64,000 bases of DNA from a bacterium (GTDB lineage: Bacteria > Zhuqueibacterota > Zhuqueibacteria > Residuimicrobiales > Krinioviventaceae), in assembly GCA_963693055.1 (NCBI GenBank), contig OY843751.1:2112001-2176000 (forward strand). The letters are read 5' to 3'. The position numbers were made by a program, and so were the translations under genes. Under the pieces are notes generated by a model. It did no database searches, was not told where the DNA came from, and saw only the letters and a program-made list of their open reading frames with translations. Of this stretch, positions 40,942 to 63,857 are shown one piece after another. Within the stretch, counting starts at the first letter, position 1. Each line of letters opens with the position of its first letter.

Positions 40942-40963
40942 ACGTGGAAAATTAATTAGCTAT

Positions 40964-41012
40964 TTTGGTGATAACTCCAGTCTCCCTACGGGCTCCTGAA
41001 GTTATCACCAAA
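40964..41012. repeat. Hairpin motif, copy 1 (inside IS3 right end)
   Basis: 13-bp stem TTTGGTGATAACT/AGTTATCACCAAA around CCAGTCTCCCTACGGGCTCCTGA. Confidence 0.85.
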
Positions 41013-41131
41013 GATGTTCCACACCTTAAATAATACCTAAAACTGTCTAAACAATGGGGAGCGCCCCAATCAAAGATAATAATTTAAGTATTATTCAAGT
41101 ATAAATTTCAAAATAATAAAAGAGGCATGAT

Positions 41132-41941
41132 TTGAACGCATTAGAATTTAAAAATAAATTTAAAACCGGCCGAGTCTATGGTACAGCTATCACTTCAATG
41201 GCACCTATGTGGCCTGTAATTATTGAGAAAGCAAAACTTGATTTTGTATTCCTGGATACAGAACATATTATTGTAGATAAACAACCCTTGTCTGCAATGT
41301 GTAATGTTTATAAATCTATGGGAATTCTGCCTATTGTAAGAATTCCTTCACCGTTACCTGATCTTGCAACCAATGTTTTAGATGGTGGTGCCATGGGACT
41401 TTTGGCACCCTATGTGGAAACTGTCGACCAGGTTAAAAATCTTGTAGGTGCTGTTAAATACAGGCCATTAAAAGGTGAAAAATTGAAACAGATATTAGAT
41501 GATCCCGCATCTATTGATAGCAAATTGAAAGAATATGTTGATGATCGCTGCAAATATAATTTGTTATTTATTAATATTGAAAGTAAACCAGCTTTAGACA
41601 ATCTGCCTGAATTACTTGATGTACCTGGTTTGGACGGAGTAATTATTGGCCCTCATGATTTATCTTGCAGTCTAGATGTCCCTGAGGAATATACAAACCC
41701 TGTTTTTGAAAACGCAGTTTCACAAATTATTCGGGAATGTAAAAAACGTGATTTGGGAATTGGTATGCACTTGTCTGAAGGACCCGAATACCAAATGAAA
41801 TGGGGCAAAGAAGGTTTGAATATTATTCTACACAGTTCCGATGCTGCGTTGTTTTTAAAAATGCTGAATCATGATATGAGTAAAATTAAATCTACATTGA
41901 ATGATAAAGTTGAAAATAATGATAATCAAATAATAATTTAA
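41132..41941 (+). CDS. HpcH/HpaI aldolase family protein
   Basis: DFVFLDTEH, VLDGGAMG, IES, IGPHDLS. Confidence 0.88.
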   Translation: MNALEFKNKFKTGRVYGTAITSMAPMWPVIIEKAKLDFVFLDTEHIIVDKQPLSAMCNVYKSMGILPIVRIPSPLPDLATNVLDGGAMGLLAPYVETVDQVKNLVGAVKYRPLKGEKLKQILDDPASIDSKLKEYVDDRCKYNLLFINIESKPALDNLPELLDVPGLDGVIIGPHDLSCSLDVPEEYTNPVFENAVSQIIRECKKRDLGIGMHLSEGPEYQMKWGKEGLNIILHSSDAALFLKMLNHDMSKIKSTLNDKVENNDNQIII

Positions 41942-41951
41942 TGGATTGGAT

Positions 41952-44072
41952 ATGAAAAAGATTATACTGCTACTCCTCATTACTACTTCTTTTATCTTTG
42001 CTAATGTTAAAAGTACAGATACTTTTTTACAAGAATCGAGTGAGATTTATACAGGAAAAACATTTCCTGCTACGATAGTTAATCAAATTGTTCTAAAAAA
42101 TAATGGTAATCCCATTGCTATTACGTCTAGTGGAAATTTTGTGTTTGATGGAAAAGACTGGGGTACCTGTAAAGATAAGGTTGATCTTGAAGTAGATAAA
42201 GATATCAATTTTCCTAAAGAAAATGGAAAAATTTTGTCAAATGTGGAATATAATAAACAAATGTTTGTGGGAACAGAAAAAGGATTATTTGTTTTTGAAA
42301 ATAATAACTGGACTAAAGTATACCCTTCTGATGAAAAGTTTAGTTGGAGTTTAACTCAAGTAACCGTTTTGGGAGTAGATTCTCACAATAGACTCTGGTT
42401 TGGTTCAAATCAGGGGGCAGGGGTTCTTGAAAATGGTACCTGGTCACTTTTTACCGGTTCAGAAGGTTTACCGGTAAAGCAGTTTACGTGTATTACTGCC
42501 GATAAACGAGGGAATATCTGGTTTGGAACTGAAAGAGGTGTTGTTCGTTCGGATGGTAAAGCATTCAGATACCGATTCAGCAGACGCTGGCTTCCTGATG
42601 ATCATGTGAATGATTTAGTTATTGATAAAAAGGGTGCAGCGTGGATTGCTACCAATAATGGCGTTTGCAAGATTTATTTTGATGAAATGAATTATGAGCA
42701 AAAAGCTGATTATTTTACTAATCAGGTTGAATCTCGTCACAACAGGGATGGCTTTATTTGTCAGAACAAATTGTTTGAGCAATATCAAAAAGAACCATAC
42801 AGACTGGATATTTCTGACAATGACGGAACATATACCGCAAAGTACGGCGCCGCACAGGTATTTCGTTATGCGGTTACAGGAGACAAACGGGCACGTGAAT
42901 TGGCGTTGCGTAGTTTTATGGCCTGTAAATGGCTGACTGAAATTACACATGAGGCAGGTTTCCCAGCCCGTGTAATTATTCCAGTGGATTGGCCTGATCC
43001 GGTAAATGATATTTATAATGATGCTTACAATAAAAGACGGTTAGAACGTGATCCCTTTTGGAAACAGATTTTGCCTCGATTTGTGAAAAGTAAGGACGGC
43101 AAATATCTGTGGAAATGTGATACCAGCTCAGACGAGCTTGCAGGACATTATTTCTTTTATGCATTGTTTTATGATCTTGCGGCAGAAACAGAGCATGAAA
43201 AAGAGATGGTTAGAAAAGTCGTTAAAGATGTAACAGATCACCTTGTGCGAAATGGGTTTTTATTACGCGATCATGATGGCAAGCCAACACGTTGGGCAGA
43301 CTTTTCTCCGGAATTTGTAAACTCGGAAAGAGGATGGGACCAACGCGGTTTAAATTCAATGATGATGTTGTCGTTTTTAAATGTGGCTCATCATGTGACC
43401 GGAGACCCAAAATATAAAGATACAGCCAAAATGTTGATGGACGAACATAATTATCATATTAACGCTATGCAGGCCAAAATGTTTTTCCCTCCCGAGGATG
43501 TGGTTCCCTGGGACAATAATTTGTGTCTGACTAGTATGTATGGTTTGATAAAGTATGAAGAGGATCCAGAATTATTATTAATGTATCGTGAAAGTCTGGA
43601 AAATGCCTGGTTGCATATTAGTAAACAAAAGAATGCATTATGGAATGTACTTTATGCGGCAATGACTGATCATTTTAAAAAGACAGTTGAAACTGGAATT
43701 TATGAAACAGGAAAGGTTTTTCCTGAATCAGGTCCCTTTGCTTCTTTCACTGCCAGACAATATAGTAATGCAGATTGCCGCTATGATGATATTATTGAAT
43801 CTTTGACATTATTGCCATTGGATTTGATTGGATATGATATGGACAATACGCATCGCCTGGATGTCGTTTTTGATCCTACTCCCGGTCAAGCTCCGGATAT
43901 GGGTTGGCATTATGATGGCTATGCTTTACCCGTTGATGAACGTGGTCATGTACGTCAGGATCGTGATGGCTTTGCTTTACATGCTTTTGAAGGTGGGGGA
44001 TACCAGGAGCAGGAAGGCACTTTTTATCTGTTGCCGTATTATATGGCTAGATATTATGGATTGATTGAATAG
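41952..44072 (+). CDS. Secreted beta-propeller + six-hairpin-like hydrolase
   Basis: Signal peptide, D..G..WFGT propeller repeats, C-terminal SDNDG, DTSSDE, YLLPYYM. Confidence 0.6.
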   Translation: MKKIILLLLITTSFIFANVKSTDTFLQESSEIYTGKTFPATIVNQIVLKNNGNPIAITSSGNFVFDGKDWGTCKDKVDLEVDKDINFPKENGKILSNVEYNKQMFVGTEKGLFVFENNNWTKVYPSDEKFSWSLTQVTVLGVDSHNRLWFGSNQGAGVLENGTWSLFTGSEGLPVKQFTCITADKRGNIWFGTERGVVRSDGKAFRYRFSRRWLPDDHVNDLVIDKKGAAWIATNNGVCKIYFDEMNYEQKADYFTNQVESRHNRDGFICQNKLFEQYQKEPYRLDISDNDGTYTAKYGAAQVFRYAVTGDKRARELALRSFMACKWLTEITHEAGFPARVIIPVDWPDPVNDIYNDAYNKRRLERDPFWKQILPRFVKSKDGKYLWKCDTSSDELAGHYFFYALFYDLAAETEHEKEMVRKVVKDVTDHLVRNGFLLRDHDGKPTRWADFSPEFVNSERGWDQRGLNSMMMLSFLNVAHHVTGDPKYKDTAKMLMDEHNYHINAMQAKMFFPPEDVVPWDNNLCLTSMYGLIKYEEDPELLLMYRESLENAWLHISKQKNALWNVLYAAMTDHFKKTVETGIYETGKVFPESGPFASFTARQYSNADCRYDDIIESLTLLPLDLIGYDMDNTHRLDVVFDPTPGQAPDMGWHYDGYALPVDERGHVRQDRDGFALHAFEGGGYQEQEGTFYLLPYYMARYYGLIE

Positions 44073-44087
44073 GTTGCTGGAGTATTT

Positions 44088-45446
44088 ATGTTGAAAAATA
44101 TATTCAAAGTTTCAATCAGGATTGTATTGGCTTTGCTTTTAATAATTGTACTTTTTCTATCCGCATGCCTTCGAAGAATTGATTATCGACCATATCAGGA
44201 AAGTAAATATTATGAGGCAACAATCCGGCAGCTTGATAATATAGTTAAGGACTATCCTGATTCCAAACCAGATACATTATTCATGGGAGCAGCGAAAGCA
44301 GGTATAACACCACCGATTGGTTTGCCTTTGGCTGGTTTTGGAAACCGCAAAGGAAAGCCCTCAACCGGAGTACATGATAGTTTGTTTGTTCGCGTTATAG
44401 CCTTAAAGAGTGGTGCACAGCAAGCCTTTATTGTTGGTTATAATGCACTTTTACTTCATCCCCCGGTAGCAAGGATGTTTGAAAAAAAAGCGAAACAGAT
44501 GCTGGATGTTGAACCTGAATCGTTTTTTTATACAGCTACACATTCACACTCGGGCCCGGGTGGATGGGGCAGTGGCTTTGTTGAGGAACAATTTTCAGGT
44601 CCGTTCGATTCTACTATTGTTCATATACTCATTGATAGCACTTTGGCTGCAGTTTCCCGTGCAAAGTTGGAATTACAGCCATCAACCTTTACAGTACAGA
44701 CGGTACATGCACCCGAATTTATACGAAATCGTTTGGTTGGCGATGAAGGACAAGTAGATGATGATTTGATATTTGCAGCATTCACGTCAGATACCGGGCA
44801 GAATGCTGTATGTGCAACTTATTCTGCGCATGCTACCGTTTTACCGGGGAGCAACATGCATTTTAGCGGGGATTATCCCGGATACATGGAACGCAAAGTT
44901 GAATCCGAATGGGATGCAACATGTTTATTTGCCGCGGCAGGTTTGGGAAGTCATAGTAACAAGGGCAAGGGAGAAAAGTTTGATAAAGCAGCCTATATTG
45001 GTGAAGGACTTGCGGACAGCTTGTTGAATAATTTACCGTTGAAATTTAATTCAAAACAAACAGTGTTAAAAGTGTTACGTATACCGGTAACCAAACCCCG
45101 CTTGCAAATTAAAATCAATAATGATATTTGCCTGGCCCCCTGGTTTGCTAAACAATTATTTAAACCGTACGATGCGTATTTACAATTCATTGTATTGAAT
45201 GATTTCATTATGATAGGCAGTCCGGGAGAATTTAGTGGGGAATTGGCCCTTGAAGTCAAACACTATGCTGCTCAATATGGGAAAATTGCAACCGTAACCA
45301 GTTTCAATGGTTGTTATATGGGTTATGTTACACCTTCAAAATATTACCATCTAGATAAATACGAAACTAAATTGATGAGTTGGTATGGTCCCTGGTCTGG
45401 AGATTATCTTGCTGATCTGATGAAGCAGATGATTGATCGATTGTAA
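44088..45446 (+). CDS. Neutral/alkaline ceramidase-like metallohydrolase
   Basis: GITPP...GVHDSL, ATHSHSGP, AHAT, SGDYPG, PGE. Confidence 0.75.
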   Translation: MLKNIFKVSIRIVLALLLIIVLFLSACLRRIDYRPYQESKYYEATIRQLDNIVKDYPDSKPDTLFMGAAKAGITPPIGLPLAGFGNRKGKPSTGVHDSLFVRVIALKSGAQQAFIVGYNALLLHPPVARMFEKKAKQMLDVEPESFFYTATHSHSGPGGWGSGFVEEQFSGPFDSTIVHILIDSTLAAVSRAKLELQPSTFTVQTVHAPEFIRNRLVGDEGQVDDDLIFAAFTSDTGQNAVCATYSAHATVLPGSNMHFSGDYPGYMERKVESEWDATCLFAAAGLGSHSNKGKGEKFDKAAYIGEGLADSLLNNLPLKFNSKQTVLKVLRIPVTKPRLQIKINNDICLAPWFAKQLFKPYDAYLQFIVLNDFIMIGSPGEFSGELALEVKHYAAQYGKIATVTSFNGCYMGYVTPSKYYHLDKYETKLMSWYGPWSGDYLADLMKQMIDRL

Positions 45447-45487
45447 AAAAAAAAATGGAGAAAAATGCAACTCGATGAAATAAGTAT

Positions 45488-45515
45488 TTGCATTTAAAAA
45501 ATAAAATGTTATATT
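45488..45515 (+). promoter_or_regulatory. Probable sigma70 promoter of the tRNA
   Basis: TTGCAT, then TGn-TATATT extended -10, ending 15 nt upstream of the tRNA. Confidence 0.55.
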
Positions 45516-45530
45516 TATCACTGCTTACCA

Positions 45531-45603
45531 GGGCCCATAGCTCAACGGTTAGAGCAACGGACTCATAATCCGCAGGTTCGGGGTTCAAATCCCTGTGGGC
45601 CCA
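45531..45603 (+). tRNA. tRNA with CAT anticodon, most likely tRNA-Ile2 (lysidine); CCA not encoded
   Basis: Acceptor GGGCCCA/TGGGCCC, D arm GCTC/GAGC, anticodon loop CTCATAA, T loop TTCAAAT. G1-C72 pair excludes initiator; C4/C5 acceptor resembles Ile2. Confidence 0.92.
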
Positions 45604-45608
45604 CTTTT

Positions 45609-45644
45609 AAAGCCTCTAATACGATATGTGTTAGAGGCTTTTTT
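45609..45644 (+). terminator. Intrinsic terminator after the tRNA
   Basis: AAAGCCTCTAA...TTAGAGGCTTT + T-run. Confidence 0.85.
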
Positions 45645-45746
45645 ATTATTTTTATTAAAGTTACGAACAAACCTTTAAAATCAATAACTATTAGTTATTT
45701 CAGTTTTCCTTTTCAATTTCCTATCATTTCCTTCTATTTCACTTTC

Positions 45747-45769
45747 AAACTGACACAAAAACTGACACA
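45747..45769 (+). repeat. Tandem 11-bp direct repeat (possible integrase arm-type sites)
   Basis: AAACTGACACA at 45747-57 and 45759-69. Confidence 0.55.
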
Positions 45770-45810
45770 CAAAAAAAGGGAAAAAGAGTGTATTTAAGCA
45801 CTCATTAATC

Positions 45811-46020
45811 TTAGTTATTATGCCCTTTATTTTTAATCCATGTTTCCAAATTTTTTCGAGGGATGACTTGCAATATTCTCATTGGATCACTATTATTCCA
45901 TTGAACCATGATTCTGTTATTTCTGTCAAATTTTATTCGATAATATCCAGTAAGCATTTCTAGTTGAACTGCTTTCTTTTTCTCATCTTTTATCTCTTTT
46001 TTCAATTTTGTATTTTCCAT
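45811..46020 (-). CDS. Small hypothetical protein
   Basis: MENTK...IPRKNLETWIK; start codon abuts the IS4 end. Confidence 0.35.
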   Translation of the reverse strand: MENTKLKKEIKDEKKKAVQLEMLTGYYRIKFDRNNRIMVQWNNSDPMRILQVIPRKNLETWIKNKGHNN

Positions 46021-47291
46021 CATTAGTATCCGGTTTAAGTTTTAAACAAGCAAAATTGCCTGGTGTTCTTTCGAAATAATTTGGGATAAAACATTTCCAT
46101 AATAAATTTACGTTCAAGCAGGTTAACCTCAAGCAGTCTGAAAATCTGCTGAATGGATTGTTTTAATTTTTGAGAGTACTTTAAATAACTATCCATCAGG
46201 TAGGCAATCATAGCAATCCAAATTTGAGTTAACACCGCGTTTTTTGAAGTACCAATGAATCTCTTGATTTTTAAATTTTGTTTGATGGTTTTAAAGAACA
46301 GTTCAATTTCCCAACGTGCTTTATAAATTGCAGCAATGGTTTTTGAATCAAGATCATTCGTAAGGAACGTGAGTTCTTTGGCGGTTTCCGGATCCTGATA
46401 AAATATTTTCCGGATCGGAAACGGATATTTTTTATGACTTTGGTAGCCGGTAAATTCTATGATACTATCCGTCAAAACACCATTTTTCGGGTCAGGCACA
46501 TTATAACTCAAGCTGCGAAAGGCGGCATTTTCCTTCATTCTGGTTACAAATCGTATCTTATTGTTTTTAAAACGGTTATAAAGTTCCAGATCATGATACC
46601 CTTTGTCAAAAGTAAGATAACTGCCTTCTGGAATGTTCATTAGCCTGGCAGCAGTCACATCATGCATTTTCCCGTCAGAGATATTCATAAAGACGGGTAA
46701 TGAACCGTCGGCCTGCATGAGTGTATGCATTCGAACTGCCCCTTTTGTTGAACGGAAACGGGCCCATGGAAATAACTTGAGGCATAGATCAATTGTGCTC
46801 GAGTCCATGATATAGAGTTTGGAACCCAAATCAAGCTTATATTGGGGCGCTAAATTTTGTACTTGTTTAAGAAAGATATAAAATAGTTCTTCATAAATTT
46901 CAAAAGGTCGTTTATTGTTAGCGTCTGCCAATGTGGAACGTTTCATAGGTTTGCTGCCGAGATGATAGAACTTGTTTATTTGAGAATTTGAACTGAAAAC
47001 GATATCGCGCAGTGAATGACGGCTACCGAGCTGACCGAATAAAATATGCACAAACTGATCCCAACATGTCAATGTACGGGATCGATAATCGCCATTGTGT
47101 TTTTTACAACTTTTTCAAATTCAAAGATAAGCATTACATTATGTTTAACATTTGTCGAAAAATTGTTTTATTATATGCCATGCCCGATAACCTTTTGTTT
47201 TGTTAGATTTTGTGTGCAAACAAATATAACAATTATTTTGGTTTTTCGGGCTATTTTTGTTTATATGTATTCTTTTAACCGGACACTAATG
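46021..47291 (-). mobile_element. IS4-family insertion sequence (inactive)
   Basis: 15-bp TIRs CATTAGTATCCGGTT (46021) and rc CATTAGTGTCCGGTT (47277-91); DUF4372 + DDE transposase. Confidence 0.9.
46035..47181 (-). pseudogene. IS4 transposase, frameshifted near the N-terminus
   Basis: MAYNKTIFRQML start at 47181 is out of frame with LTCWDQF...DSSTIDLC...FDKGY...YKARWEIELFFK. Confidence 0.85.
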
Positions 47292-47338
47292 ATATTAAAT
47301 ATAAATTTAATAAATATATAAATACCATATCTACATCT

Positions 47339-48229
47339 ATGCTATTAAGCTCAAAGGTAATTCAAAGATTGGAAAAATTTTCACGGCTTGATTCTAAAGG
47401 GCGTTTGTATTTTGTAATCAATGGAAAAGCATATACTGCAAAGCAAACAGCTGATCGTTTTATTTTTAATACAAAATCCCACGGTGGGAATTCAAGAAAC
47501 GTTCGTTATGAGAGATTGCCAAATGGGGAATACTGGAAAGCAGAGATAAATCCGATTGATGATTGTGTTTATTTTAACTTTTCGTGGGATAACGTTTTTG
47601 CCTTAACCGAACGTGAATTGCTTAATTGTAAAAGATTCATGGCAATAGTGCAGACATGCAATGTTGGGATGTCGAGATTTGCATTTATGACTAGAAAAAA
47701 GATTGTACTTCTTTTCCGGGAATTCGGTGTGAAATATGTTTTGACAAAATTGAGATATATAATTCAACTTGATTTATCGCTTTTTATCAGGAATCCTTTT
47801 AGGTATTTATGGGCTGCATTGGTAAATGATCGAGAGACAGGTTGGGAAAATTCAATTGCTGTCAAGGATGAACGTAGAGACAATGATGGTATTAGGCGAA
47901 CTGATGGTTCTTATTCGAAATTTGAAATACCGCTTATAAGTCCAGTATTAAGAAAAATGTCTAAACTTATTTCTAATAACACAAGCTCTGTTGAAGCAAG
48001 AGATGAGAAATGGTATTATTGGCTTCTCGGCTTATGTTTAACTGATCAATTGCATGAAGAAATTCACACCGAAGGATATTTTTGTGAGCATGAAAAAAAT
48101 ATGTATCCATTTAGAAACCTTTGGGATGATTTTTATAAGGAGTGGGAAGAAGGTTGGAAGCTGAAGGATCGGGAAACAATAAACGCATACAGTCCGGGTA
48201 TCCTTGCATTGACCACGGAAGGTTATTAA
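47339..48229 (+). CDS. Hypothetical protein (possible mobile-element replication-related protein)
   Basis: 296-aa ORF; IRNPFRYLWAALVND resembles a helical motif seen in Rep C-termini (weak). Confidence 0.5.
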   Translation: MLLSSKVIQRLEKFSRLDSKGRLYFVINGKAYTAKQTADRFIFNTKSHGGNSRNVRYERLPNGEYWKAEINPIDDCVYFNFSWDNVFALTERELLNCKRFMAIVQTCNVGMSRFAFMTRKKIVLLFREFGVKYVLTKLRYIIQLDLSLFIRNPFRYLWAALVNDRETGWENSIAVKDERRDNDGIRRTDGSYSKFEIPLISPVLRKMSKLISNNTSSVEARDEKWYYWLLGLCLTDQLHEEIHTEGYFCEHEKNMYPFRNLWDDFYKEWEEGWKLKDRETINAYSPGILALTTEGY

Positions 48230-48244
48230 TACATAGGAGAAAAT

Positions 48245-48613
48245 ATGGATTTAACACTAAAACAACCCATGCTAAACAACACAACGTTTGCTGAAATATT
48301 ACATTGGTCAACCAAAAACCAATTGATTGAAAAGAACCAATGGGCAGATTCGAAAGACTGGCAACCGGTTCTTGAACAGGTCCTGAAAGAAAAGAATACA
48401 AGCATTAAAAAGTTGTTTAGTAGGAAATTCAGGATTGTGAATTTTATAGAATTCACTGAATCTGCATTTGATACTGCAAAATTATTGATTGGAGAATCTG
48501 CAACATTTGAAGAACATAAAAATATTGTCCTTTCCATCTTGTTGCATTATAATGATCAATATGATTTGTTTGAAAAATTGGATAAAATCAGTACCGGGAA
48601 AATGAAAAATTGA
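48245..48613 (+). CDS. Hypothetical protein
   Basis: RBS AGGAG, 122-aa ORF. Confidence 0.55.
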   Translation: MDLTLKQPMLNNTTFAEILHWSTKNQLIEKNQWADSKDWQPVLEQVLKEKNTSIKKLFSRKFRIVNFIEFTESAFDTAKLLIGESATFEEHKNIVLSILLHYNDQYDLFEKLDKISTGKMKN

Positions 48614-48905
48614 TCGTTTGGAATTAGATTAAAAGTTGTTAAATTATATAAAAATAATTGCTTGTCATATGTATTACTCATGTTGATCATGATGTCATGC
48701 TTTATAATCCCTGAGCAAATAAATAAAACAGGGATAATTTACAATTTACATTTCTGAATCCTTTCATTAGCAATTCGTTAAATTCCTTGCTTTTATCCCC
48801 GAAAATTTTTATATCAGTACATGTTTTGTTTGGGGCCCTTTGGGGTTAATTTTTTTATTGATATAATATCTTGTAACACATACACACCAATCTCCGGAGA
48901 CGCGA

Positions 48906-50459
48906 ATGGCAAAGGCCAATAACAACAATAATAAATCTGAATCCATTGAAAAACAGTTGTGGAAAGCTGCGGACAAGCTCCGTAAAAATATAGATGCGGC
49001 TGAATACAAGCATATTGTGTTGGGATTGATTTTCCTGCGATACATATCTGATGCGTTTGAAAAATTATACGATATCCTGAAAAAGGGTGAGGGCGAGTAT
49101 GAGGGAGCAGACCCAGAGGACAAGGACGAGTACAAGGCAGAGAATGTCTTTTTCGTGCCCGAGATTGCGCGCTGGTCTTATTTACAATCCAAGGCCAAGC
49201 TGCCGGATATCGGCAAGACTGTTGACGATGCCATGGATGCCATTGAAAAAGACAATCCCTCGTTGCGGGATGTGCTGCCCAAGGTCTTTGCCAGGGGCAA
49301 TCTGGACCCCACCAATCTTGGCGGCCTGATCGATCTCATCAGCAATGTGGCCCTCAAAGAAGCCAAACAGCGCAGTGCCGATGTGTTTGGTCATGTGTTT
49401 GAATATTTTCTCGGCGAGTTTGCCCTGGCAGAGGGTAAAAAGGGGGGACAATTTTACACGCCCCGCAGTGTTGTCGAGTTGCTGGTTGAAATGCTTGAAC
49501 CGTACAAGGGCCGTGTCTTTGATCCCTGTTGCGGTTCCGGTGGCATGTTTGTCCAGTCTGAAAAATTTGTGCAGGACCACCAGGGATTGTTGAACGATAT
49601 CTCTATTTACGGACAGGAAAGCAACCAGACCACATGGCGGCTGGCCAAAATGAACCTGGCCATTCGCGGTATTGACAGTTCTCAGGTAAAATGGAACAAT
49701 GAAGGTTCGTTTTTGAATGACGCCCACAAGGACCTGAAAGCCGATTTTGTTATTGCCAATCCGCCATTTAATGACAGCGACTGGAGCGGCGATCTGCTCC
49801 GTAATGACGGCCGCTGGAAGCTCGGTACACCGCCAGCCGGTAATGCCAACTATGCCTGGATACAGCACTTTTTGTATCACCTCAGCCCGAGCGGACAAGC
49901 CGGGTTCGTTCTGGCAAAAGGATCACTGACTACCAAGACCTCCGGTGAAGGCGATATCCGTAAAGCATTGATCGAAGCGCGCTTGGTGGATTGTATTGTC
50001 AACCTGCCTGCCAAGCTGTTTCTGAACACCCAGATACCGGCCAGCTTGTGGTTCCTAAGCCGCAATAAAGCCAATGGAAATTATAGAAATCGAGTGGATG
50101 AAATTCTGTTTATCGATGCCCGCAATCTGGGCCACCTGATCAACCGCAGGACCCGCGAGTTTTCTGATGAGGATATTGCAGCCATCGCAAACACCTATCA
50201 CAACTGGCGTAATCCTGAAGGGGATTATGAGGATGTAAAAGGCTTTTGCAATTCTGCCCCTATTGACCGGGTACGGGAACTGGATTATGTACTCACACCC
50301 GGACGCTATGTGGGACTACCGGAAGAAGAGGATAATTTTGATTTTACCGAGCGCTTTACCCAACTCAAAACCGAGTTTGAAGAACAGCTAAAGGAAGAAG
50401 CCAGGTTGAATGAGTTGATCATTGAGAATTTGAACAAGATCGAGTTGAATAAAGAGTGA
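48906..50459 (+). CDS. hsdM: Type I R-M methyltransferase
   Basis: [28 protein letters not shown]. Confidence 0.97.
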
Positions 50460-50474
50460 CTTTTTATCGGATTC

Positions 50475-50700: not shown

Positions 50701-50782
50701 GGAAAAAGGTTAATCTTTAAGATTATTTTAATAATGTTCATACAATAAATTTTGTTCAATATTTTTAAGGATTGTTACAAGC

Positions 50783-53095: not shown

Positions 53096-53105
53096 AAGGA
53101 GTAAC

Positions 53106-54866: not shown

Positions 54867-54881
54867 TTTCATGACAAAAAA

Positions 54882-55280
54882 ACCGAATCCCAAATCGACC
54901 AATTCGCCATCGAGCATCTGAAGCACCAGGTGGAAAATCTTGTAATCAATATTATAAAGGTTTAGCATGGATGATTTAACAAATGACCAGTCTCGTTTTT
55001 TATTTTATACAAATCAAGATGGAACAATTAATATAGATGTTGTTATACAGAATGAATCCGTTTGGCTTACTCAACAAACCATAGCTACATTGTTCGGAGT
55101 TGGAAGACCAGCTATTACAAAATATTTGAAAAATATAATTGATTCGGGTGAACTGCAACAGGATTCAGTATGTTCCATTTTGGAACCTACTGAAATTTGT
55201 GATAATAATGATCGATTGACCGAGCAAAAAGATGAAACATAAAATCACCGAATCCCAAATCGAACAATTCGCCATCGAGC
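54882..55280 (+). repeat. 34-bp direct repeat of the hsdR 5' end
   Basis: ACCGAATCCCAAATCGA(C/A)CAATTCGCCATCGAGC at 54882-54915 and 55247-55280. Confidence 0.9.
54967..55242 (+). pseudogene. Truncated RhuM-like DNA-binding protein
   Basis: ESVWLTQQTIATLFGVGRPAITKYLKNI..SGEL..DSVCSILE, then diverges. Confidence 0.75.
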
Positions 55281-58200
55281 TGCTGGAAAAACAGGGCTTT
55301 GAATATATCTATGCGCCTGATATTGCCCCGGACAGTGACGCACCGGAACGACAATCCTTTGAAGAGGTGCTGCTGCTGGACCGTCTGCGCAATGCTGTCA
55401 ACCGCATCAATCCATTCATTCCCTCAGATGTTAGGGAAGACGCCATCAAACAGATCCAGCGTCTGGTTTCACCTGAACTCATTGCCAATAATGAAACCTT
55501 TCACCGTATGCTTACAGAAGGCATAAAGGTCACGTATCAAAAAGACCTGCCTGCGTCCGCAGGACAGGCAGGGGGGCGCGAACAACGCGGTGACCTGGTC
55601 TGGCTCATTGATTTCCACAATCCGGATAACAATGATTTTGTGGTGGCCAACCAGTTTACCGTTATCGAGAACAATGTCAATAAACGTCCTGATGTGATCT
55701 TGTTTGTTAACGGCATTCCCCTGGTGGTGATCGAGCTCAAGAACGCGGCTGATGAAAACGCCAATGTCAAATCGGCATTTAAACAGATGCAAACCTACAA
55801 GCAGGAAATTCCCAGCTTGTTTACCTATAACGGATTCATGATCATCTCTGACGGTTTGGAGGCCAGGGCCGGTACCATCTCGGCCGGATTCGCCCGCTTT
55901 ATGGCCTGGAAAACATCGGACGGCAAGGTAGAGGCTTCGCCGCTCATCGGCCAGTTGGAAACCCTCATCAAAGGCATGCTGCAAAAAGAGACCCTGCTCG
56001 ACCTGGTCCGTCATTTCATCGTGTTTGAAAAATCCAAAAAAGAGGACCGCAAAACCGGTGTCATCACCATCGAGACTTTGAAAAAGCTGGCAGCCTATCA
56101 TCAATACTATGCGGTGAACCGGGCAGTGGAATCCACGTTGAGAGCATCGGCATATCTTGAACCAAATACTGATAGTAACAAGGTTAAGGAATCTCCGGCT
56201 TCTTATGGCGTGCCCGGTGTGGATGCTCAACCTGTAGGAGACCGCAAGGGAGGCGTGGTCTGGCATACTCAGGGCAGCGGCAAGTCCTTGTCCATGGTAT
56301 TCTATACCGGCAAAGTTGTGCTGGCTATGGAGAATCCCACCGTGGTTGTTATCACGGACAGAAACGACCTGGATGATCAATTATACGATACCTTTGCCGC
56401 CTCCAAGCAGCTCCTCAGGCAGGAGCCGGTGCAGGCGAAAACGAGGGACCATTTAAAAGACCTGCTCACAGTTGCATCCGGTGGCGTGGTCTTTACCACC
56501 ATCCAGAAATTTTCTCCTAATGAAGGCAATGTATACGAGACCTTGTCCCACCGTGGGAATATTGTGGTCATTGCGGATGAAGCGCACCGCACCCAGTATG
56601 GCTTTCATGCCAAGACCATTGATGCCAAAGACGAGAGCGGCAAGGTGGTTGGTAAAAAGATCGTTTATGGGTTTGCCAAGTATATGCGTGATGCTTTGCC
56701 CAACGCAACCTATCTGGGATTCACCGGTACTCCCATTGAAAGCACGGATGTGAATACCCCTGCGGTTTTCGGCAACTATATCGATGTGTATGACATCCTG
56801 CAGGCGGTTGAGGACAAGGCAACCGTTCCTATTTACTATGAGAGCCGACTCGCTAAAATCAACCTGAGTGAAGAAGGCAAAAAGCTGATAGATGAGCTGG
56901 ATAAAGAACTGAAAGAGGATGACCTCACCGACAGTCAGCAGGCCAAAGCCAAATGGACACAGCTTGAAGCGCTCATTGGCAGCCATGATCGCATTAAACG
57001 GGTTGCTCAGGATGTTGTTGCCCATATTGAAGAACGCCAAAAAGTGTTTGCGGGCAAGGCCATGATCGTTGCAATGTCCCGCAGGATTGCTGCGGAACTG
57101 TACAAAGAGATTATAGCAATCAGACCCGAGTGGCATGATGATGATTTGAAAAAAGGAATGATCAAGGTGGTCATGACTTCCTCATCTGCTGACGGTCCCG
57201 AGATCGCCAGACACTATACATCCAAAGAACAGAGACGTTATTTGTCAGACCGTATGAAAGATGTCGATGATGAACTGAAACTGGTGATCGTCCGGGATAT
57301 GTGGCTCACCGGATTTGATGTGCCCTGTATGCATACCCTGTACATCGACAAACCCATGAAGGGCCACAACCTGATGCAGGCCATTGCACGGGTGAACCGC
57401 GTTTATCATGATAAAAAAGGCGGTCTCATAGTGGATTACCTTGGCATTGCATCAGACCTCAAAAAAGCATTGTCCTTTTACTCGGACAGCGGTGGCAAGG
57501 GTGATCCAGTTATTGCGCAGGAAGAAGCCGTACAGATAATGTTGGAAAAGCTGGAAATCGTTACCCAAATGTATCATGGATTTGCCTATGAAGATTATTT
57601 TGAAGCAGATACCGGCAAAAAGCTCTCCATGATCCTTGCTTCAGAAAACCACATCTTGGGCCTGGAGGATGGCAGGAAGCGATACATCAATGAAGTCACT
57701 GGGTTGTCCCAAGCTTTTTCTATTGCTGTGCCTCATGAACAGGCAATGGATGTTAAGGATGAGGTATCTTTTTTTCAGGCAGTCAAAGCCAGGCTGGTGA
57801 AATATGAAAGTACCGGCAACGGCAAAACCGATGAAGAAGTAGAGACCGTCATCCGGCAGGTAATCGACCAGGCGCTGGTGAGCGAACAGGTCATTGATGT
57901 GTTTGATGCTGCCGGAATCAAGAAACCGGACATCTCGATCCTGTCGGAAGAGTTTCTGCTCGAAGTCAAAAATATGAAACACAAGAACATTGCCATTGAA
58001 GTACTGAAAAAACTGCTCAATGACGAAATCAAATCCCGTATGAAAACGAACCTGGTCCAGAGCAAATCGCTCATGGAAATGCTGGAAAGCTCGATCCAGA
58101 AATATCATAACAAGATCCTGACTGCTGCAGAGTTTATGGAGCATCTCATCGAGTTGGGCAAGCATATCCAAAATGCCGACAAAGAGCCGGAAGAAATGGG

Positions 58201-58486
58201 ACTCTCTGAATTTGAATACGCTTTTTACACTGCAATCGCCAATAACGACAGTGCGCGTGAACTGATGCAAAAGGACAAGCTCCGCGAGCTGGCAGTGGTT
58301 CTGTTTGAAAAAGTAAAAGCCAACGCCTCCATCGACTGGACCATCAAAGAGAGTGTAAAATCCAGGCTCAAGGTTATTGTCAAGCGCACGCTCCGGCAGT
58401 ACGGTTATCCACCGGACATGCAAAAACTCGCCACCGAAACCGTACTCAAACAAGCCGAGATGATAGCGGAGGAGTTGGTGGGGTAA
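55232..58486 (+). CDS. hsdR: Type I restriction endonuclease subunit R
   Basis: RPDVILFVNGIPLVVIELK, WHTQGSGKS, DEAHR, FTGTP, TGFDVP, QAIARVNR. Confidence 0.97.
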   Translation: MKHKITESQIEQFAIELLEKQGFEYIYAPDIAPDSDAPERQSFEEVLLLDRLRNAVNRINPFIPSDVREDAIKQIQRLVSPELIANNETFHRMLTEGIKVTYQKDLPASAGQAGGREQRGDLVWLIDFHNPDNNDFVVANQFTVIENNVNKRPDVILFVNGIPLVVIELKNAADENANVKSAFKQMQTYKQEIPSLFTYNGFMIISDGLEARAGTISAGFARFMAWKTSDGKVEASPLIGQLETLIKGMLQKETLLDLVRHFIVFEKSKKEDRKTGVITIETLKKLAAYHQYYAVNRAVESTLRASAYLEPNTDSNKVKESPASYGVPGVDAQPVGDRKGGVVWHTQGSGKSLSMVFYTGKVVLAMENPTVVVITDRNDLDDQLYDTFAASKQLLRQEPVQAKTRDHLKDLLTVASGGVVFTTIQKFSPNEGNVYETLSHRGNIVVIADEAHRTQYGFHAKTIDAKDESGKVVGKKIVYGFAKYMRDALPNATYLGFTGTPIESTDVNTPAVFGNYIDVYDILQAVEDKATVPIYYESRLAKINLSEEGKKLIDELDKELKEDDLTDSQQAKAKWTQLEALIGSHDRIKRVAQDVVAHIEERQKVFAGKAMIVAMSRRIAAELYKEIIAIRPEWHDDDLKKGMIKVVMTSSSADGPEIARHYTSKEQRRYLSDRMKDVDDELKLVIVRDMWLTGFDVPCMHTLYIDKPMKGHNLMQAIARVNRVYHDKKGGLIVDYLGIASDLKKALSFYSDSGGKGDPVIAQEEAVQIMLEKLEIVTQMYHGFAYEDYFEADTGKKLSMILASENHILGLEDGRKRYINEVTGLSQAFSIAVPHEQAMDVKDEVSFFQAVKARLVKYESTGNGKTDEEVETVIRQVIDQALVSEQVIDVFDAAGIKKPDISILSEEFLLEVKNMKHKNIAIEVLKKLLNDEIKSRMKTNLVQSKSLMEMLESSIQKYHNKILTAAEFMEHLIELGKHIQNADKEPEEMGLSEFEYAFYTAIANNDSARELMQKDKLRELAVVLFEKVKANASIDWTIKESVKSRLKVIVKRTLRQYGYPPDMQKLATETVLKQAEMIAEELVG
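55546..55572. repeat. 27-bp palindromic in-frame insertion in hsdR
   Basis: CCTGCCTG-CGTCCGCAGGA-CAGGCAGG encoding LPASAGQAG. Confidence 0.75.
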
Positions 58487-58573
58487 TAATCAGAAAATGA
58501 ATTTATATCAATATAATATAGAATAGAGTATTAAAGAAAGGTGTCATAAATATAAATGAAAATGGAGGTATAA

Positions 58574-59722
58574 ATGATTTCGAAAATTTTTAAAAAAGTT
58601 TTTAAATTTATTTTTCCTGATGATGCTCCTACTGAAAAAATTCCATTACTTTATTATCATATCTTTAAATTATATAGATTTTTTAAAAGTATAATTATTG
58701 TATCATTGATTCCGAAATCAATAGAGATTATTGTTTCTTATTTATCCCCTGCTTGGTCGTGCAATTTGGATAAAAAAGATACCGATAAGATTCTAAACAA
58801 ATCATTTTATATTGTGAGTTTTTTAGTTTTTATCTTGACACTTGTTGTTCAAGGTCTTTGGTCTTTTGGGGAAGGCACATTTAGAGGATCAAATAATGAT
58901 ATATTTTATTTTTGGGATGACAAATTAAATATTTTAAATTATTTTTTTATTGTTCCATTATATATGGCATTGGGTATCCGTTTGGTTTCATTAACAATAG
59001 ACGGGTTTGGTTTTATTACGAATTTTTTTAATAGAGATGAATTATCAGATAAAAAAATGACTAAACCAAAAGGCTCAATTATATATTTATTTTTTTTTAT
59101 AATTGTACTCTCTATCGCAATAACTATTAATTACATGCATGAAATATTAGACACATCATTATATTTACAACATTTTTGGTGTATCACAAAAATATCATCA
59201 TCAGGAGAAAGAATATTTTCGGGTTTGGGGATTTACTATACTTTATTAACCTATAATCTACTCTTAGTAAGCTTGTTTGTTGTAATATCTTATCTCTCAA
59301 TATTTTTAATTACAATAAATTATGGCAGTAAAATTAAAAATGAAAAAATATTAGACACGATTTCTTTATCTGAATTTAAGGGAAGATTGTCTTATTTTGT
59401 TAATATCAATTTAGTAGCAAAAGCAATTGCAGCAATTTATATGTTGAATGCATTAACTTGGAAATATCAATCAACATTAGCAAATAAAGATACTTTAAAT
59501 TTACAGTTGTTTGTAATAGCGTTAGCTTTTTTAGGATTATTTGTTATTTCAATCCCTCGATACTATATTGAACTTGAAATATATAGTTATCAGGTTTCAA
59601 AAGTAGGAGAGCCCAATAATGTAGTTTATAATGATTTACGACCACGTAATGTTAAGATTATTACTAATGTATTAGATTGGACAATAATTGCAATTTTCAC
59701 TAAAGTATTCTTTTCAATATGA
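58574..59722 (+). CDS. AT-rich multi-pass membrane protein
   Basis: Several hydrophobic helices; RBS GGAGG. Confidence 0.65.
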   Translation: MISKIFKKVFKFIFPDDAPTEKIPLLYYHIFKLYRFFKSIIIVSLIPKSIEIIVSYLSPAWSCNLDKKDTDKILNKSFYIVSFLVFILTLVVQGLWSFGEGTFRGSNNDIFYFWDDKLNILNYFFIVPLYMALGIRLVSLTIDGFGFITNFFNRDELSDKKMTKPKGSIIYLFFFIIVLSIAITINYMHEILDTSLYLQHFWCITKISSSGERIFSGLGIYYTLLTYNLLLVSLFVVISYLSIFLITINYGSKIKNEKILDTISLSEFKGRLSYFVNINLVAKAIAAIYMLNALTWKYQSTLANKDTLNLQLFVIALAFLGLFVISIPRYYIELEIYSYQVSKVGEPNNVVYNDLRPRNVKIITNVLDWTIIAIFTKVFFSI

Positions 59723-60588
59723 TTAAAAAAACAAATTATAAATTATTCATTATTTTCCTATTATTCATTTCTTGTTCTCATTCGATTAAACAATTAACAA
59801 AACCCACTTTATCAGAGTTGCAAACTCCTGGTAGAGTTTTGTTAGTTGTAGCACATCAGGATGATGAAGTTTTTATTGCTTCCAGATTAAAATCCCATAT
59901 TGATCTGGGTGATACTTTGATGATTGTTTGGACTGCAATTTCAACTCAAAAAAATTTAGAATATGCTAATAGAAGAATTGATGAATCATTGTTAGGAGCA
60001 AAAACATTTTTAGACTTGTCAGATTCATCTTTAATATTCTTAAAATATGAGGATGGAAAAACATTTGAAAATATTGATGAAATATATGTTAAGATAAAAA
60101 GTGTAATAGAAAAATTTCATCCAAATATAATATATGTACCAGCTTATGAACTTGGTCATGTTGATCATGATGTTGCACACATAAGTACGGTTTTAGCACA
60201 TAATAAATTAAACTACAATTCTAAAATCTATGAATTCCCAATGTATAGTGCATATCATCTTTCAAGAATTTTTCCATTTAAAATGAGAAATTCCCCTCCT
60301 GATTATCATACAAGGTATAGAATTTTACTGGACTCAGAAAAAAAGTTTGTATTGGATTATTGGAATGTGTTCGATAGTCAACATTTTCCATTAGACTGGT
60401 ATATAAGATTTATTAGTAGTAGGAATAAAACTTTTGGAGTAGAGTATATTCGTAAAGTACCTGATTATGATTATTCAAAAAAACCTCCCGAATATGATAA
60501 TATTGCTTATGAAAGATTTTTGAATAATGTTAAATATCAAGATTTTTCAATACAGGTTGAAAAGTTGTTGAGTATTATTGGAAATTAG
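59719..60588 (+). CDS. PIG-L/LmbE-family deacetylase lipoprotein
   Basis: VAHQDDE and GHVDHD motifs; lipobox FISC. Confidence 0.85.
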   Translation: MIKKTNYKLFIIFLLFISCSHSIKQLTKPTLSELQTPGRVLLVVAHQDDEVFIASRLKSHIDLGDTLMIVWTAISTQKNLEYANRRIDESLLGAKTFLDLSDSSLIFLKYEDGKTFENIDEIYVKIKSVIEKFHPNIIYVPAYELGHVDHDVAHISTVLAHNKLNYNSKIYEFPMYSAYHLSRIFPFKMRNSPPDYHTRYRILLDSEKKFVLDYWNVFDSQHFPLDWYIRFISSRNKTFGVEYIRKVPDYDYSKKPPEYDNIAYERFLNNVKYQDFSIQVEKLLSIIGN

Positions 60589-60605
60589 TTTAAAGGTGAT
60601 AAACA

Positions 60606-62033
60606 ATGAAACTCAAAATTATTTGTTTTACTTACTGTCTATTTATCTCAATTAATAGTACAAGTTTTTCACAAGATTATTATGCAAATGGTCAGATTTT
60701 TAATGAATTGGATATCGCTCTTGATAGTTTATACATAAACAATGGTTACACTGGGATTTCTACTGCATTTTTATTACCTGATGGTCGTATTTGGACACGA
60801 GCAATAGGATATTCAAATATATCAACTTTAGAGAATCTTGATACATTGATGCTTCTCAGTGGTGCGAGTATTACAAAGACTTTTACTTCTTCTTTAATAC
60901 TCGAGTTATTAAATGAAAATTTTTTGAATTTAAGCGATTCTTTATATCAATGGTTACCTAGTTATAAAAATATTGATACTACTATTACAATTAAACAATT
61001 ATTAAATCATACAAGCGGAATATATGACTATTCTGAAAATGTACTTGGAAAAATATCAATTTTTTTAGATCCAGAAAAAATTTGGAAGCCAGAAGAAATA
61101 TTAGGATTCGTTGAAGAACCGTATTTTGATCCAGGTACTGATTGGAAATACTCTAATACTAATTATATATTATTAGGTATGATAGCAGAAAAAATAATTG
61201 ATAACTCGACAGTGTCAAATGAATTAAGACAAAGATTCTTTAATAAATATAATTTAAATCATACATTTTTTGAAATTAAAGAGGAAATACCGGATTCATT
61301 AAAAATTGCACATGGTTATATCGATGTTAATAATGATGGGATAAAGGATGATATTGAATTCTTTTCAAGAAATGCTATTTATAGTGCGGCTTGGGCAGCT
61401 GGTGCAATAGTTTCTACTCCAAAAGATTTAGTTAATTGGGCCAATTATTTATTTAATGGCAATGTGATAAATCAAAATTTACTAGATAAAATGATTGATT
61501 TTGAACCTGTTGATTTGCCTGAATCTTCACACATTATTGGTTATGGACTTGGGCTAATGCAATACAACATAAATAATTACGAATTTTGGGGGCACAGTGG
61601 AAATATACCTGGTTTTACTAGTGAATTGGTATATTCACCCGAGTTGGAAATTATTTTATGTGTATTGATTAATGAAAATGATGCAAATATAAATTATATA
61701 ACAAAGACTCTTGTTTCTACATTTACTAGTTTCAATACATCAATAAATAGATACGAAAGTAAAAATATTTCTAATTTTGAAATGTTAAATACCTATCCAA
61801 ATCCATTCAATCCTTTAACACATATTGTTTTTAAAAATTCAATCATGTCAAATGTAGCAATATCTATTTATAATCTAAAGGGACAACTTGTAGAAATTGT
61901 TTATGATCAGCAAACACCAGTAGGAACTCACAACGTGTTGTGGAATGCAAGCGAACAACCATCGGGTACCTATTTTATTAAGATGATTGCAGGTGAATTT
62001 CAGCAAATCCAAAAATGTATATTGATAAAATAA
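60606..62033 (+). CDS. Serine hydrolase (class C beta-lactamase/D,D-peptidase fold) with T9SS-type/FlgD-like C-terminal domain
   Basis: SITK (SxxK), LLNHTSG, YSN, GHSG; C-terminal YPNPFNP...IYNLKGQ...SGTYFI. Confidence 0.88.
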   Translation: MKLKIICFTYCLFISINSTSFSQDYYANGQIFNELDIALDSLYINNGYTGISTAFLLPDGRIWTRAIGYSNISTLENLDTLMLLSGASITKTFTSSLILELLNENFLNLSDSLYQWLPSYKNIDTTITIKQLLNHTSGIYDYSENVLGKISIFLDPEKIWKPEEILGFVEEPYFDPGTDWKYSNTNYILLGMIAEKIIDNSTVSNELRQRFFNKYNLNHTFFEIKEEIPDSLKIAHGYIDVNNDGIKDDIEFFSRNAIYSAAWAAGAIVSTPKDLVNWANYLFNGNVINQNLLDKMIDFEPVDLPESSHIIGYGLGLMQYNINNYEFWGHSGNIPGFTSELVYSPELEIILCVLINENDANINYITKTLVSTFTSFNTSINRYESKNISNFEMLNTYPNPFNPLTHIVFKNSIMSNVAISIYNLKGQLVEIVYDQQTPVGTHNVLWNASEQPSGTYFIKMIAGEFQQIQKCILIK

Positions 62034-62053
62034 GGAAAATTTTCCGGTAGGTT

Positions 62054-62082
62054 TTGGAAAAAAGGCGGTTATTTCATATAGT
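62054..62082 (+). promoter_or_regulatory. Candidate internal promoter of the element
   Basis: TTGGAA-N17-TATAGT. Confidence 0.45.
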
Positions 62083-62138
62083 ATTTAAAGGAAGTAACCG
62101 GAAGTCAAACAAGGATTTCAAAACTTACCGGAGGACAA

Positions 62139-62939
62139 ATGTACAATACTCGTAGTAGTTTGTATGACAGGATATTAGAAAAAACACCCGAGCAAGTATT
62201 CATCAATTCTTTACGAAAGGAATTTGAATTATCACCGGCAGAAAGTAAAGGGATATTGGATCTGGCAAAACAGTGTTTATTTGGCGAGGTTCCCCAGACA
62301 GTTGGTAAAATAAAATATATCTGCGCATCCACAAATGCAAAACATGGCAAGCCCCTGGGTGAGCAGGAATTGAAAGAAGTAGAGTTAACACTGGATGCTG
62401 GTGTAGAAGATTTAAATGTATTAAAGGAAAGCGGTCCCAAAGCATTACGGCAGCTAAAGGTATTGCGATTGACTGAAGAAGCCTGGGGCCAGGAAGGTTC
62501 TTTGACACAAGAGGATTTGGCCTGGATCCTCCAGGTTACGAGTCGCACTGTACGCCAGGATATAAAGGCATTGCAGGCAGACGGCAATTTTGTTCACACA
62601 CGCGGAACAGACCATGACATCGGTCGGAACTTGTCACACAAAAGCCGCATTATTGAACTGTATTTGCAGGGTGACACATACGATGCAATTATTCGTAAAA
62701 GTCGTCATAGTGCATTTTCAATAAAGCGATATGTGTGCAGCTTTGGCAGGCTATTACTTTTATTGAATCATGGTATGCAAGATATCAAGGAGATCAGTCG
62801 GTTATTAGGCCAAAGTGAGCGTTTGACCCGTGAATATCTGGATATTTTTGAGCATCATAAACAGGGTGACAAATGGCCGTCGATCTATGTAGAGTTATTG
62901 GACCAATTAAAGGTGTTATACCCCTCGAAAAAAAAATAA
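62139..62939 (+). CDS. DUF1670-like protein A
   Basis: LTEEAWGQEGSLTQEDLAWIL...TRGTDHDIG..SHK..I..LY..G...HS..SIKRY; RBS GGAGG. Confidence 0.8.
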   Translation: MYNTRSSLYDRILEKTPEQVFINSLRKEFELSPAESKGILDLAKQCLFGEVPQTVGKIKYICASTNAKHGKPLGEQELKEVELTLDAGVEDLNVLKESGPKALRQLKVLRLTEEAWGQEGSLTQEDLAWILQVTSRTVRQDIKALQADGNFVHTRGTDHDIGRNLSHKSRIIELYLQGDTYDAIIRKSRHSAFSIKRYVCSFGRLLLLLNHGMQDIKEISRLLGQSERLTREYLDIFEHHKQGDKWPSIYVELLDQLKVLYPSKKK

Positions 62940-62955
62940 ACCAAGGAGGGGAACG

Positions 62956-63771
62956 ATGAAGACTAAGCCTTTAAATCGTTATGAATCAATAGCTAAGCGT
63001 AGCTTTCAAAATGCTATTATTCGCTTACTGGAAGAAAATTATAAAATGTTAGGAAGCCATAAAGTCATCCGAATAATCGCAGAAGATATTGTCGCATTGC
63101 AAAATGAATTTTATCCGGAGCTGGAAAAGAAAAGTTTTGGTCAGATTATCTGGCGAACGACCAAAGCGACAAATCGAAAACCAAGCTATGGCACAAAAGC
63201 GGAAGATTATGAAGTTCAGACAGTTGTACTGCCATTGGTTACAGATGAAGACATTGACAATCGAATCAAGAGTCATTATTCTTATCGAGACAAAGATGGC
63301 AGAGCTGATTATGAGAAGCAGGTTGATCGGGATATTAAGGTAATGGCGCGGTTGTGCAAGAGTGCGGCGGAACAGGGTGGTTGGTTGACAGGCGCAGAAC
63401 TCAGTGTACTGTTAAATCGTTCATTAAACGCTATTGGTCGGTATATGACAATTTACCATGAAACACATGATGATATATTACCGACCAAAGGAATGATGCT
63501 GGATCAGGGCAGTAAGCCGACACATAAAGCCGCAATTATAGATTTATACGAGCAGGGCTATCCCGAACCGGATATCGCCCGGATCACAAATCACACAATT
63601 GAATCGACGAGTCGTTATCTCAAGACTTACAAGAACGTAAAGTTATTATTGGAAAAAGGTTTTAATTTAATGGAAATGGTAAGGATAACCGGATTAGGAA
63701 AAAAGACAATAACACAATATCGTGATCTGGTTTATCTTTATCATTCAGATTTAAAACAAAAGAAAACTTGA
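62956..63771 (+). CDS. DUF1670-like protein B (paralog of A)
   Basis: AAEQGGWLTGAELSVLL...PTKG..DQG..THK..I..LY..G...HT..STSRY; RBS AGGAGG. Confidence 0.8.
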   Translation: MKTKPLNRYESIAKRSFQNAIIRLLEENYKMLGSHKVIRIIAEDIVALQNEFYPELEKKSFGQIIWRTTKATNRKPSYGTKAEDYEVQTVVLPLVTDEDIDNRIKSHYSYRDKDGRADYEKQVDRDIKVMARLCKSAAEQGGWLTGAELSVLLNRSLNAIGRYMTIYHETHDDILPTKGMMLDQGSKPTHKAAIIDLYEQGYPEPDIARITNHTIESTSRYLKTYKNVKLLLEKGFNLMEMVRITGLGKKTITQYRDLVYLYHSDLKQKKT

Positions 63772-63808
63772 AAATTTGAAAAGGAATTTATAGGTTAGGT
63801 TGTCACAA

Positions 63809-63857
63809 TTTTTAGCTAACTCCAGTCGCCCTACGGGCTCCTTCCGTTAGCTAAAAA
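63809..63857. repeat. Hairpin motif, copy 2 (inside DUF1670 element right end)
   Basis: Stem TTTTTAGCTAAC/GTTAGCTAAAAA around TCCAGTCGCCCTACGGGCTCCTTCC. Confidence 0.85.

Follow-up and report, generated by a model that had tools for sequence, protein, structure and literature searches.

Why two unrelated mobile elements should carry the same hairpin near the same end is the question raised by a 64,000-nucleotide stretch of bacterial DNA (contig OY843751.1, positions 2,112,001 to 2,176,000; hereafter, the window), in which the hairpin occurs once in an IS3-family insertion sequence and once in a two-gene DUF1670 element. An earlier reading of the window (the first-pass annotation) had proposed a structure-selected module common to unrelated element families. 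Our results bear this out, as the motif was found in six element families, including some without DDE enzymes, and in about ten phyla, with covarying stems and near element ends. In its consensus letters, it matches the alpha-transposase motif of a 2007 CMfinder survey, a single hairpin with much covariation that lies near transposases, to which the survey assigns no function, and which was read there first as an RNA and alternatively as a site in double-stranded DNA (Weinberg 2007; PMC1950547). What appears to be new is the breadth of its range, a polarity rule and a reading as DNA. Our tentative proposal, to which we give slightly less than an even chance, is that the module is an optional hairpin of single-stranded DNA, formed on the inward-reading strand, and that during copy-out of an element as a circle it would serve as a signal for priming or for loading a primosome.

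The hairpin in the window and in its genome

The two 26-mers (40972-40997 and 63817-63842) are identical at 25 of 26 positions, share their orientation and lie between the last stop codon of their element (40941 and 63771, respectively) and its right inverted repeat, just as the first-pass annotation had claimed. The enclosing stems that it had described do pair and are in fact longer, and they end about 50 to 60 nucleotides (nt) short of the element tip. The two modules are as follows.

40964..41012, minus strand: hairpin module, IS3 copy, with a 13-bp outer stem, G·A mismatches and a C-GTA-G triloop (loop 40987-40989)
63809..63857, minus strand: hairpin module, DUF1670 copy, with a 12-bp outer stem and a C-GTA-G triloop (loop 63832-63834)

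Going inward from the outer stem, the DUF1670 copy has a 3x3 loop (GGA/GGA), a 2-bp helix, a 2x2 loop (GA/GA) and a 4-bp stem, and the IS3 copy is a variant with ordinary pairs in place of the GGA/GGA loop. Folding z-scores of the window hairpins range from -5.3 to -7.7. A single T/G site separates the two 26-mers; the T at 40983 is private to the IS3 copy of the window, and the second IS3 copy has G.

Throughout the 6.5-Mb genome, the 26-mer was matched at nine places with at most 2 mismatches, against a chance expectation of 1.7e-6, and no further match was found with up to 6 mismatches. A covariance model run on the whole genome, as had been suggested at first pass, recovered the same nine copies, two in IS3 copies and seven in DUF1670 copies. 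All nine thus lie inside elements, tied to element ends, rather than being scattered as repetitive extragenic palindromes (REP), the contrary outcome that the first-pass annotation had kept in view. Moreover, among 52 model matches in four genomes, 41 lie beside rve genes, 7 in DUF1670 elements and 4 elsewhere, and on these two counts (9/9 and 48/52) a dispersed repeat of REP type was rejected. The same counts speak against a REP-like hitch-hiker, a selfish repeat that some other enzyme spreads and that is tolerated near element ends, a reading that we consider very improbable. Such a hitch-hiker would suit the patchy occurrence of the motif among close relatives, at either end, and a core variant that seems to track host lineage over element family (the queries being biased), but it sits poorly with in-frame retention inside orfA with covarying stems and gives no reason for the polarity described below.

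Structure and folding strand

The consensus structure of 79 distinct instances comprises a 13-bp outer stem, a 3x3 loop (GNA/GGA), a 2-bp helix, a 2x2 loop (GA/GA), a 4-bp stem and a GTA loop. In this alignment, 96% of cells are paired and 17 of the 19 pairs have changes on both sides. Covariation reaches 0.80, compared with 0.18 in shuffled and at most 0.18 in slid alignments, and both pairing and covariation exceed all 500 shuffles and every slid control. Covariation, which the first-pass annotation had asked to be tested, shows the motif to have a conserved structure.

The inner stem swaps GCCC/GGGC for GGGC/GCCC, among others, in the register of the triloop. The cUACGg mini-hairpin described at first pass lies one column over, and it fares poorly: 65% of cells are paired in that register versus 98% in the triloop register, and its closing pair is broken in 16 of the 79 instances, while the C-G pair closing the triloop is invariant (79/79). 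A UNCG tetraloop hairpin was rejected on these figures. The loops of model-found copies read C-GNA-G in 26 of the 28 parsed, the others being one 4-nt loop and one ACA, a tally that leans to G-A, GTA and GGA being the loops from which the model had been built.

Isolated stem mismatches indicate which strand folds. In a dereplicated set of 70 instances, chosen by their Watson-Crick pairs alone, 27 such mismatches read as G·T on the purine strand versus 2 on the other strand. (The count of 38 versus 2 in alignment A2 is biased because G·T passed as a pair when its rows were filtered; 27 versus 2 is the fair count.) By this bias, it is the purine-rich strand, the minus strand in the window, that folds, and not the cUACGg strand, the plus strand read by the first-pass annotation. 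In duplex DNA, the same bias would be meaningless. A palindromic double-stranded site for a dimeric DNA-binding protein, the alternative offered in Weinberg 2007 (PMC1950547), agrees with the conservation of the core in sequence; nevertheless, the palindromic arms are the non-conserved part and the conserved core is not palindromic, and we find such a site hardly credible.

Of the 64 triloops, GNA alone gives DNA minihairpins, which as RNA are much weaker (PMC13037366). Minihairpins of C-GNA-G DNA have unusual stability and are found at single-strand initiation sites. DNA is thus the better reading of the motif. The module likely folds as single-stranded DNA rather than RNA, although this falls short of proof. 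The unpaired positions may be read as sheared G·A pairs, by analogy with known DNA structures.

Position and polarity

The module sits 50 to 130 nt inside one element end, and in 68 of 71 annotated instances its purine strand, read 5' to 3', leads from the nearest terminus into the element. The other 54 of the 125 dereplicated instances came without an annotated gene, in many cases because flank was missing, and two entries of the tally are doubtful (L185, with a poor stem, and L008, with a neighbouring Y1 gene). A second, partly overlapping set gave inward polarity in 17/17. The rule holds at both 5' and 3' element ends, and within one element family the motif lies at the 3' end in some members and at the 5' end in others. 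Among 52 loci picked by protein similarity alone, an inward cGNAg hairpin was present behind the gene in 8 (2 of them the window's own) and an outward one in none. The polarity is thus relative to the element end. An ordinary mRNA element would keep to the transposase mRNA; the motif keeps to the terminus instead and is therefore no such element.

The end-relative polarity would fit equally well an RNA element in transcripts that read in from the near end, where an attenuator, a processing site or a protein-binding site would shield the element. RNA, too, has G·U wobbles and tandem G·A loops among its features, the first codons of orfA contain the hairpin, in frame, in one IS3 subgroup, and a role in RNA was the first proposal of Weinberg 2007 (PMC1950547). 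Left-end copies would then lie in the transposase mRNA. Against such an element, right-end copies are antisense to the transposase and the loop consensus, C-GNA-G, is neither GNRA nor UNCG. The hairpins resemble intrinsic terminators and UNCG RNA hairpins in having a GC-rich stem past the stop codon and CUACGG on the plus strand; however, a terminator scan did not call them as a stem with a U tract behind it, and the terminator suggested at first pass is not supported. Altogether, we regard a read-in RNA element as quite unlikely.

Range across phyla and element families

Scanned for the exact core, GTDB genomes gave at least 116 stretches, in which the core is fixed by the search pattern and the outer stem varies from element to element yet remains paired. 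According to 80 record titles, these belong to Acidobacteriota, Planctomycetota, deltaproteobacteria, KSB1, Nitrospirota, Bacteroidota, Bacillota, Chloroflexota, Latescibacterota and others, and plasmid searches add beta- and alphaproteobacteria. Prevalence is uneven among the lineages sampled. With the centre genome of each sample included, the motif occurs in 22 of the 167 genomes from the phylum to which the window belongs, in 38 of 101 from one acidobacterial class, in 9 of 101 in a phylum sample centred on Desulfobacterales and in 1 of 121 in each of the Bacillota and Bacteroidota samples; the phylum sample around G612 consists of 8 genomes and is uninformative on Pseudomonadota. Several of the prevalence and model tallies are lower bounds, with part of the candidates scored.

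By Pfam and record annotation, the host families are IS3 (several subgroups, including ISRj2), IS21, IS481-like, IS256, the three-integrase RIT elements and DUF1670, and one IS110 case also carries the motif. In two genomes with 48 to 58 matches, from each of which one locus was sampled, both loci lie beside transposases. By contrast, none of the 147 listed matches to IS4/IS5-type transposases (PF01609) in four genomes had the motif within about 1.5 kb; these are 147 of 234 matches, of which 84 were unlisted and 3, in a motif-free genome, were left out. The core reads GGGC in alphaproteobacterial IS21 and IS3 elements and GCCC in betaproteobacterial ones, the queries being biased. A metagenome scan with a pattern one base too long gave 78 matches, 16 of them with outer stems of at least 7 bp, and a viral scan with the corrected pattern gave 28, 19 of them with a paired inner stem.

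In Moorella (L033), the motif lies at the 5' end of an element with a fusion-like DUF1670 protein of 524 aa. At L377 (G337:C7:146462-146986), the stretch between divergent DUF1670 genes holds two motif copies, which are 474 bp apart and oppositely oriented.

Relation to known motifs

The consensus letters of the alpha-transposase motif match four loci exactly, including an Agrobacterium IS21 end, and the DUF1670 copy of the window agrees at 26 of 31 letters, its 5 differences falling in three base pairs that are still paired. The comparison was made with letters taken from the consensus diagram, with two positions assumed to be unlabelled. Also in common are the strand, the GUA loop, a 10- to 15-bp covarying stem, nearness to transposases and a mixed orientation to genes (39/99 non-cis). 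As published, the motif has 102 copies, in alphaproteobacteria only, and weak sequence conservation. The present motif differs in its range of about ten phyla and six families, its swapped inner stem, its polarity rule and its proposed reading as single-stranded DNA. The published restriction to alphaproteobacteria does not hold here, and we extend the range while keeping the motif in membership. The first-pass annotation had wondered about a described Rfam family: an Rfam scan gave the motif no score above the gathering threshold, and it is to the published motif without a function that the match was found. In a literature search, the name alpha-transposase motif turned up in Weinberg 2007 alone, and searches by exact sequence and by concept added no description.

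Short hairpins linked to mobile DNA are also known as REP/RAYT-type repeats and as the Acido-Lenti-1 motif (RF01687). Unlike these, the present motif occurs as one copy per element, internal and non-dispersed, and has no Rfam match; the lone nearby Y1 gene (L008) lies beyond what by eye is an apparent IstB remnant.

The motif also has a likeness to sites that act on single-stranded DNA. Covariation and strand bias point to what is expected of a single-strand initiation site, namely, a stable hairpin on one strand with a minihairpin apex. In a scan of ColE1, the sole hairpin found with tandem GA and cGNAg has the apex GA-GC-GTA-GC-GA, at position 1336. This apex would lie about 140 nt beyond the origin, on the strand with the sense of the primer, the origin and the primosome assembly site (pas) not being annotated in the record. 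It is the same tandem-GA and C-GTA-G apex as in our motif, with no likeness beyond it. Hairpins known to act on DNA in single-stranded form include ColE1 n'-pas/ssiA, phiX174 pas, RSF1010 ssiA and the minihairpins of the phage G4 origin (PMC3167613, PMC5778457, PMC13037366). The present motif is unlike primosome assembly sites in its long regular outer stem and in its location in insertion sequences rather than in a replicon. In an Escherichia coli prophage (NZ_CP026723.1, L310 2050-2900), the motif core occurs twice, with no outer stem, among intergenic iteron-like direct repeats; the same region holds several GNA-triloop hairpins on both strands, and a 20-nt match is common to 29 E. coli genomes.

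A possible role in copy-out transposition

The copy-out/paste-in route of transposition is common to many insertion sequence (IS) families; these elements circularise one strand, giving a figure-eight, and need host replication to turn it into a double-stranded circle (PMC7780238). In ColE1, strand displacement by Pol I exposes the assembly site for PriA (PMC3167613). A literature search, with most subscription journals outside its coverage, turned up no paper naming a cis signal for the step from figure-eight to circle. We propose that the hairpin may be such a signal. The far element end would be the donor, and synthesis would start in the flank beside the hairpin and displace the purine strand first; with the far end as donor, the hairpin strand would therefore be the first to be displaced. 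The hairpin would fold on the displaced purine strand and, like the ColE1 assembly site, load a host factor, for which a PriA-type primosome or a primase is a guess.

A broader claim, which we hold to be less likely than not, is that transposons of unrelated types (DDE, DEDD, tyrosine-recombinase and DUF1670, which looks enzyme-less) have one portable single-strand origin in common. This DNA hairpin would bring the host primosome to the displaced strand and thereby provide copy-out with the replication step that it lacks. If true, this claim would mark RIT and DUF1670 elements as replicative and circle-forming, predict which end is the donor, offer a handle on their mechanisms and give a function to an orphan motif of 2007. 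The role is testable, given a 50-nt module of fixed polarity in named elements (ISRj2, rhizobial IS21).

Several observations weigh against a priming role. To our knowledge, neither RIT nor DUF1670 elements are established copy-out elements, and elements that are related do not count as independent observations. The hairpin is not required by its element families but optional: it is absent from further families of this genome that are IS3-, IS256- or DUF1670-like, the model gave a match at E<1e-5 in just 9 of 58 loci of relatives, and in L417, a relative at 81% protein identity, it is cleanly deleted. At the same place, the relatives L447, L450 and L419-L421 have either a perfect palindrome or a hairpin of unrelated sequence, and a strong hairpin of any kind may therefore suffice; the perfect palindromes of L447 and L450 appear to be derived from the motif. 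The motif is rare in sampled Bacillota and Bacteroidota (1/121 in each), and among the E. coli matches no IS-borne copy turned up, one of the 29 loci having been inspected; E. coli, Bacillota and Bacteroidota all have PriA. Finally, there are two real exceptions to the polarity, L074 and L301, whose core is flipped relative to the end.

In both exceptions, the core is inverted and the outer stem kept, and the stem of L074 resembles that of normally oriented IS3 relatives.

A hairpin of single-stranded DNA, or a cruciform, could also serve in ways other than priming, namely, exclusion of single-strand-binding protein (SSB), nuclease resistance, pausing of a polymerase or helicase, or donor-end bias. 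All the structural and polarity evidence fits such a hairpin equally well, as does the exchange for plain or unrelated hairpins in relatives, and minihairpins withstand nucleases (PMC13037366). A generic barrier, however, needs no 27-nt core that is near-constant across phyla and element families beside a free outer stem, and we judge a non-priming role to be unlikely. A plainer hairpin of the same genome is counted among the analogues in favour of priming. A nine-copy family, IS256-like by eye (C1:4351994-4353427), has a perfect 11-bp hairpin with a plain C-GTA-G cap, inward-facing and 49 nt inside the left end; its copies make up 9 of the 16 perfect cGNAg hairpins of at least 8 bp in the genome.

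In an rve-type element with two copies (C1:1328628-1329601), the left end is followed, 30 nt farther in, by a 17-bp hairpin, the apex of which looks like CCC-GTA-GGG with an insertion. A different C-GTA-G hairpin, at the same position and in the same orientation, is common to L422 (DUF1670) and L445 (IS3) and is possibly a second portable module.

The IS3 and DUF1670 elements of the window

The elements that carry the two hairpins, and the gene into which the DUF1670 copy is inserted, have the following features.

39750..41071, plus strand: IS3-family insertion sequence, its limits being those of the stretch that the other genomic copy has as well (99.9% over 1322 bp)
39756..39776, plus strand: IS3 left inverted repeat (approximate, from sequence)
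39825..40109, plus strand: IS3 orfA (HTH_Tnp_1, by Pfam)
40246..40941, plus strand: IS3 orfB (rve integrase core), starting at the first ATG; the open frame has 283 aa
41042..41062, minus strand: IS3 right inverted repeat (approximate, from sequence)
60606..62033, plus strand: target gene of the DUF1670 copy, a beta-lactamase-fold protein with a C-terminal Por_Secre_tail domain
62028..63918, plus strand: two-gene DUF1670 mobile element, with 7 genomic copies
62033..62053, plus strand: DUF1670 element left inverted repeat
62139..62939, plus strand: DUF1670 open reading frame 1 (ORF1; 266 aa)
62956..63771, plus strand: DUF1670 ORF2 (271 aa)
63887..63907, minus strand: DUF1670 element right inverted repeat

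The IS3 element has two genomic copies. The 1.9-kb DUF1670 element has seven, with different flanks, and this shows directly that the DUF1670 locus is mobile, as the first-pass annotation had argued from the shared motif. About 140 positions set the window copy apart from the other six. In all seven insertions, the element sits at the terminal lysine codon and the stop of its target gene. The target genes have C-terminal tails of secretion type that resemble one another, and insertion leaves the target reading frame closed by a stop; in the window, the stop codon of the target gene abuts the left repeat.

A fold search of PDB with a model of ORF2 (predicted local distance difference test, pLDDT, 80; predicted template modelling score, pTM, 0.51) gave no match at E<=0.001. 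By eye, the C-terminus of ORF2 resembles tyrosine recombinases, a likeness that we do not claim. A literature search for the name of the DUF1670 family gave no paper, no RNA source was listed among the sequencing runs, and no end-to-end joint of the element was found in the contigs, results with no bearing on expression or circles.

A second DUF1670-like two-gene element (C1:56372-58240) is present in six copies in the same genome. It has about 31% protein identity and lacks the hairpin, and two of its copies directly adjoin copies of the first element. Within the window, the sole Rfam match is a tRNA gene at 45531-45603.

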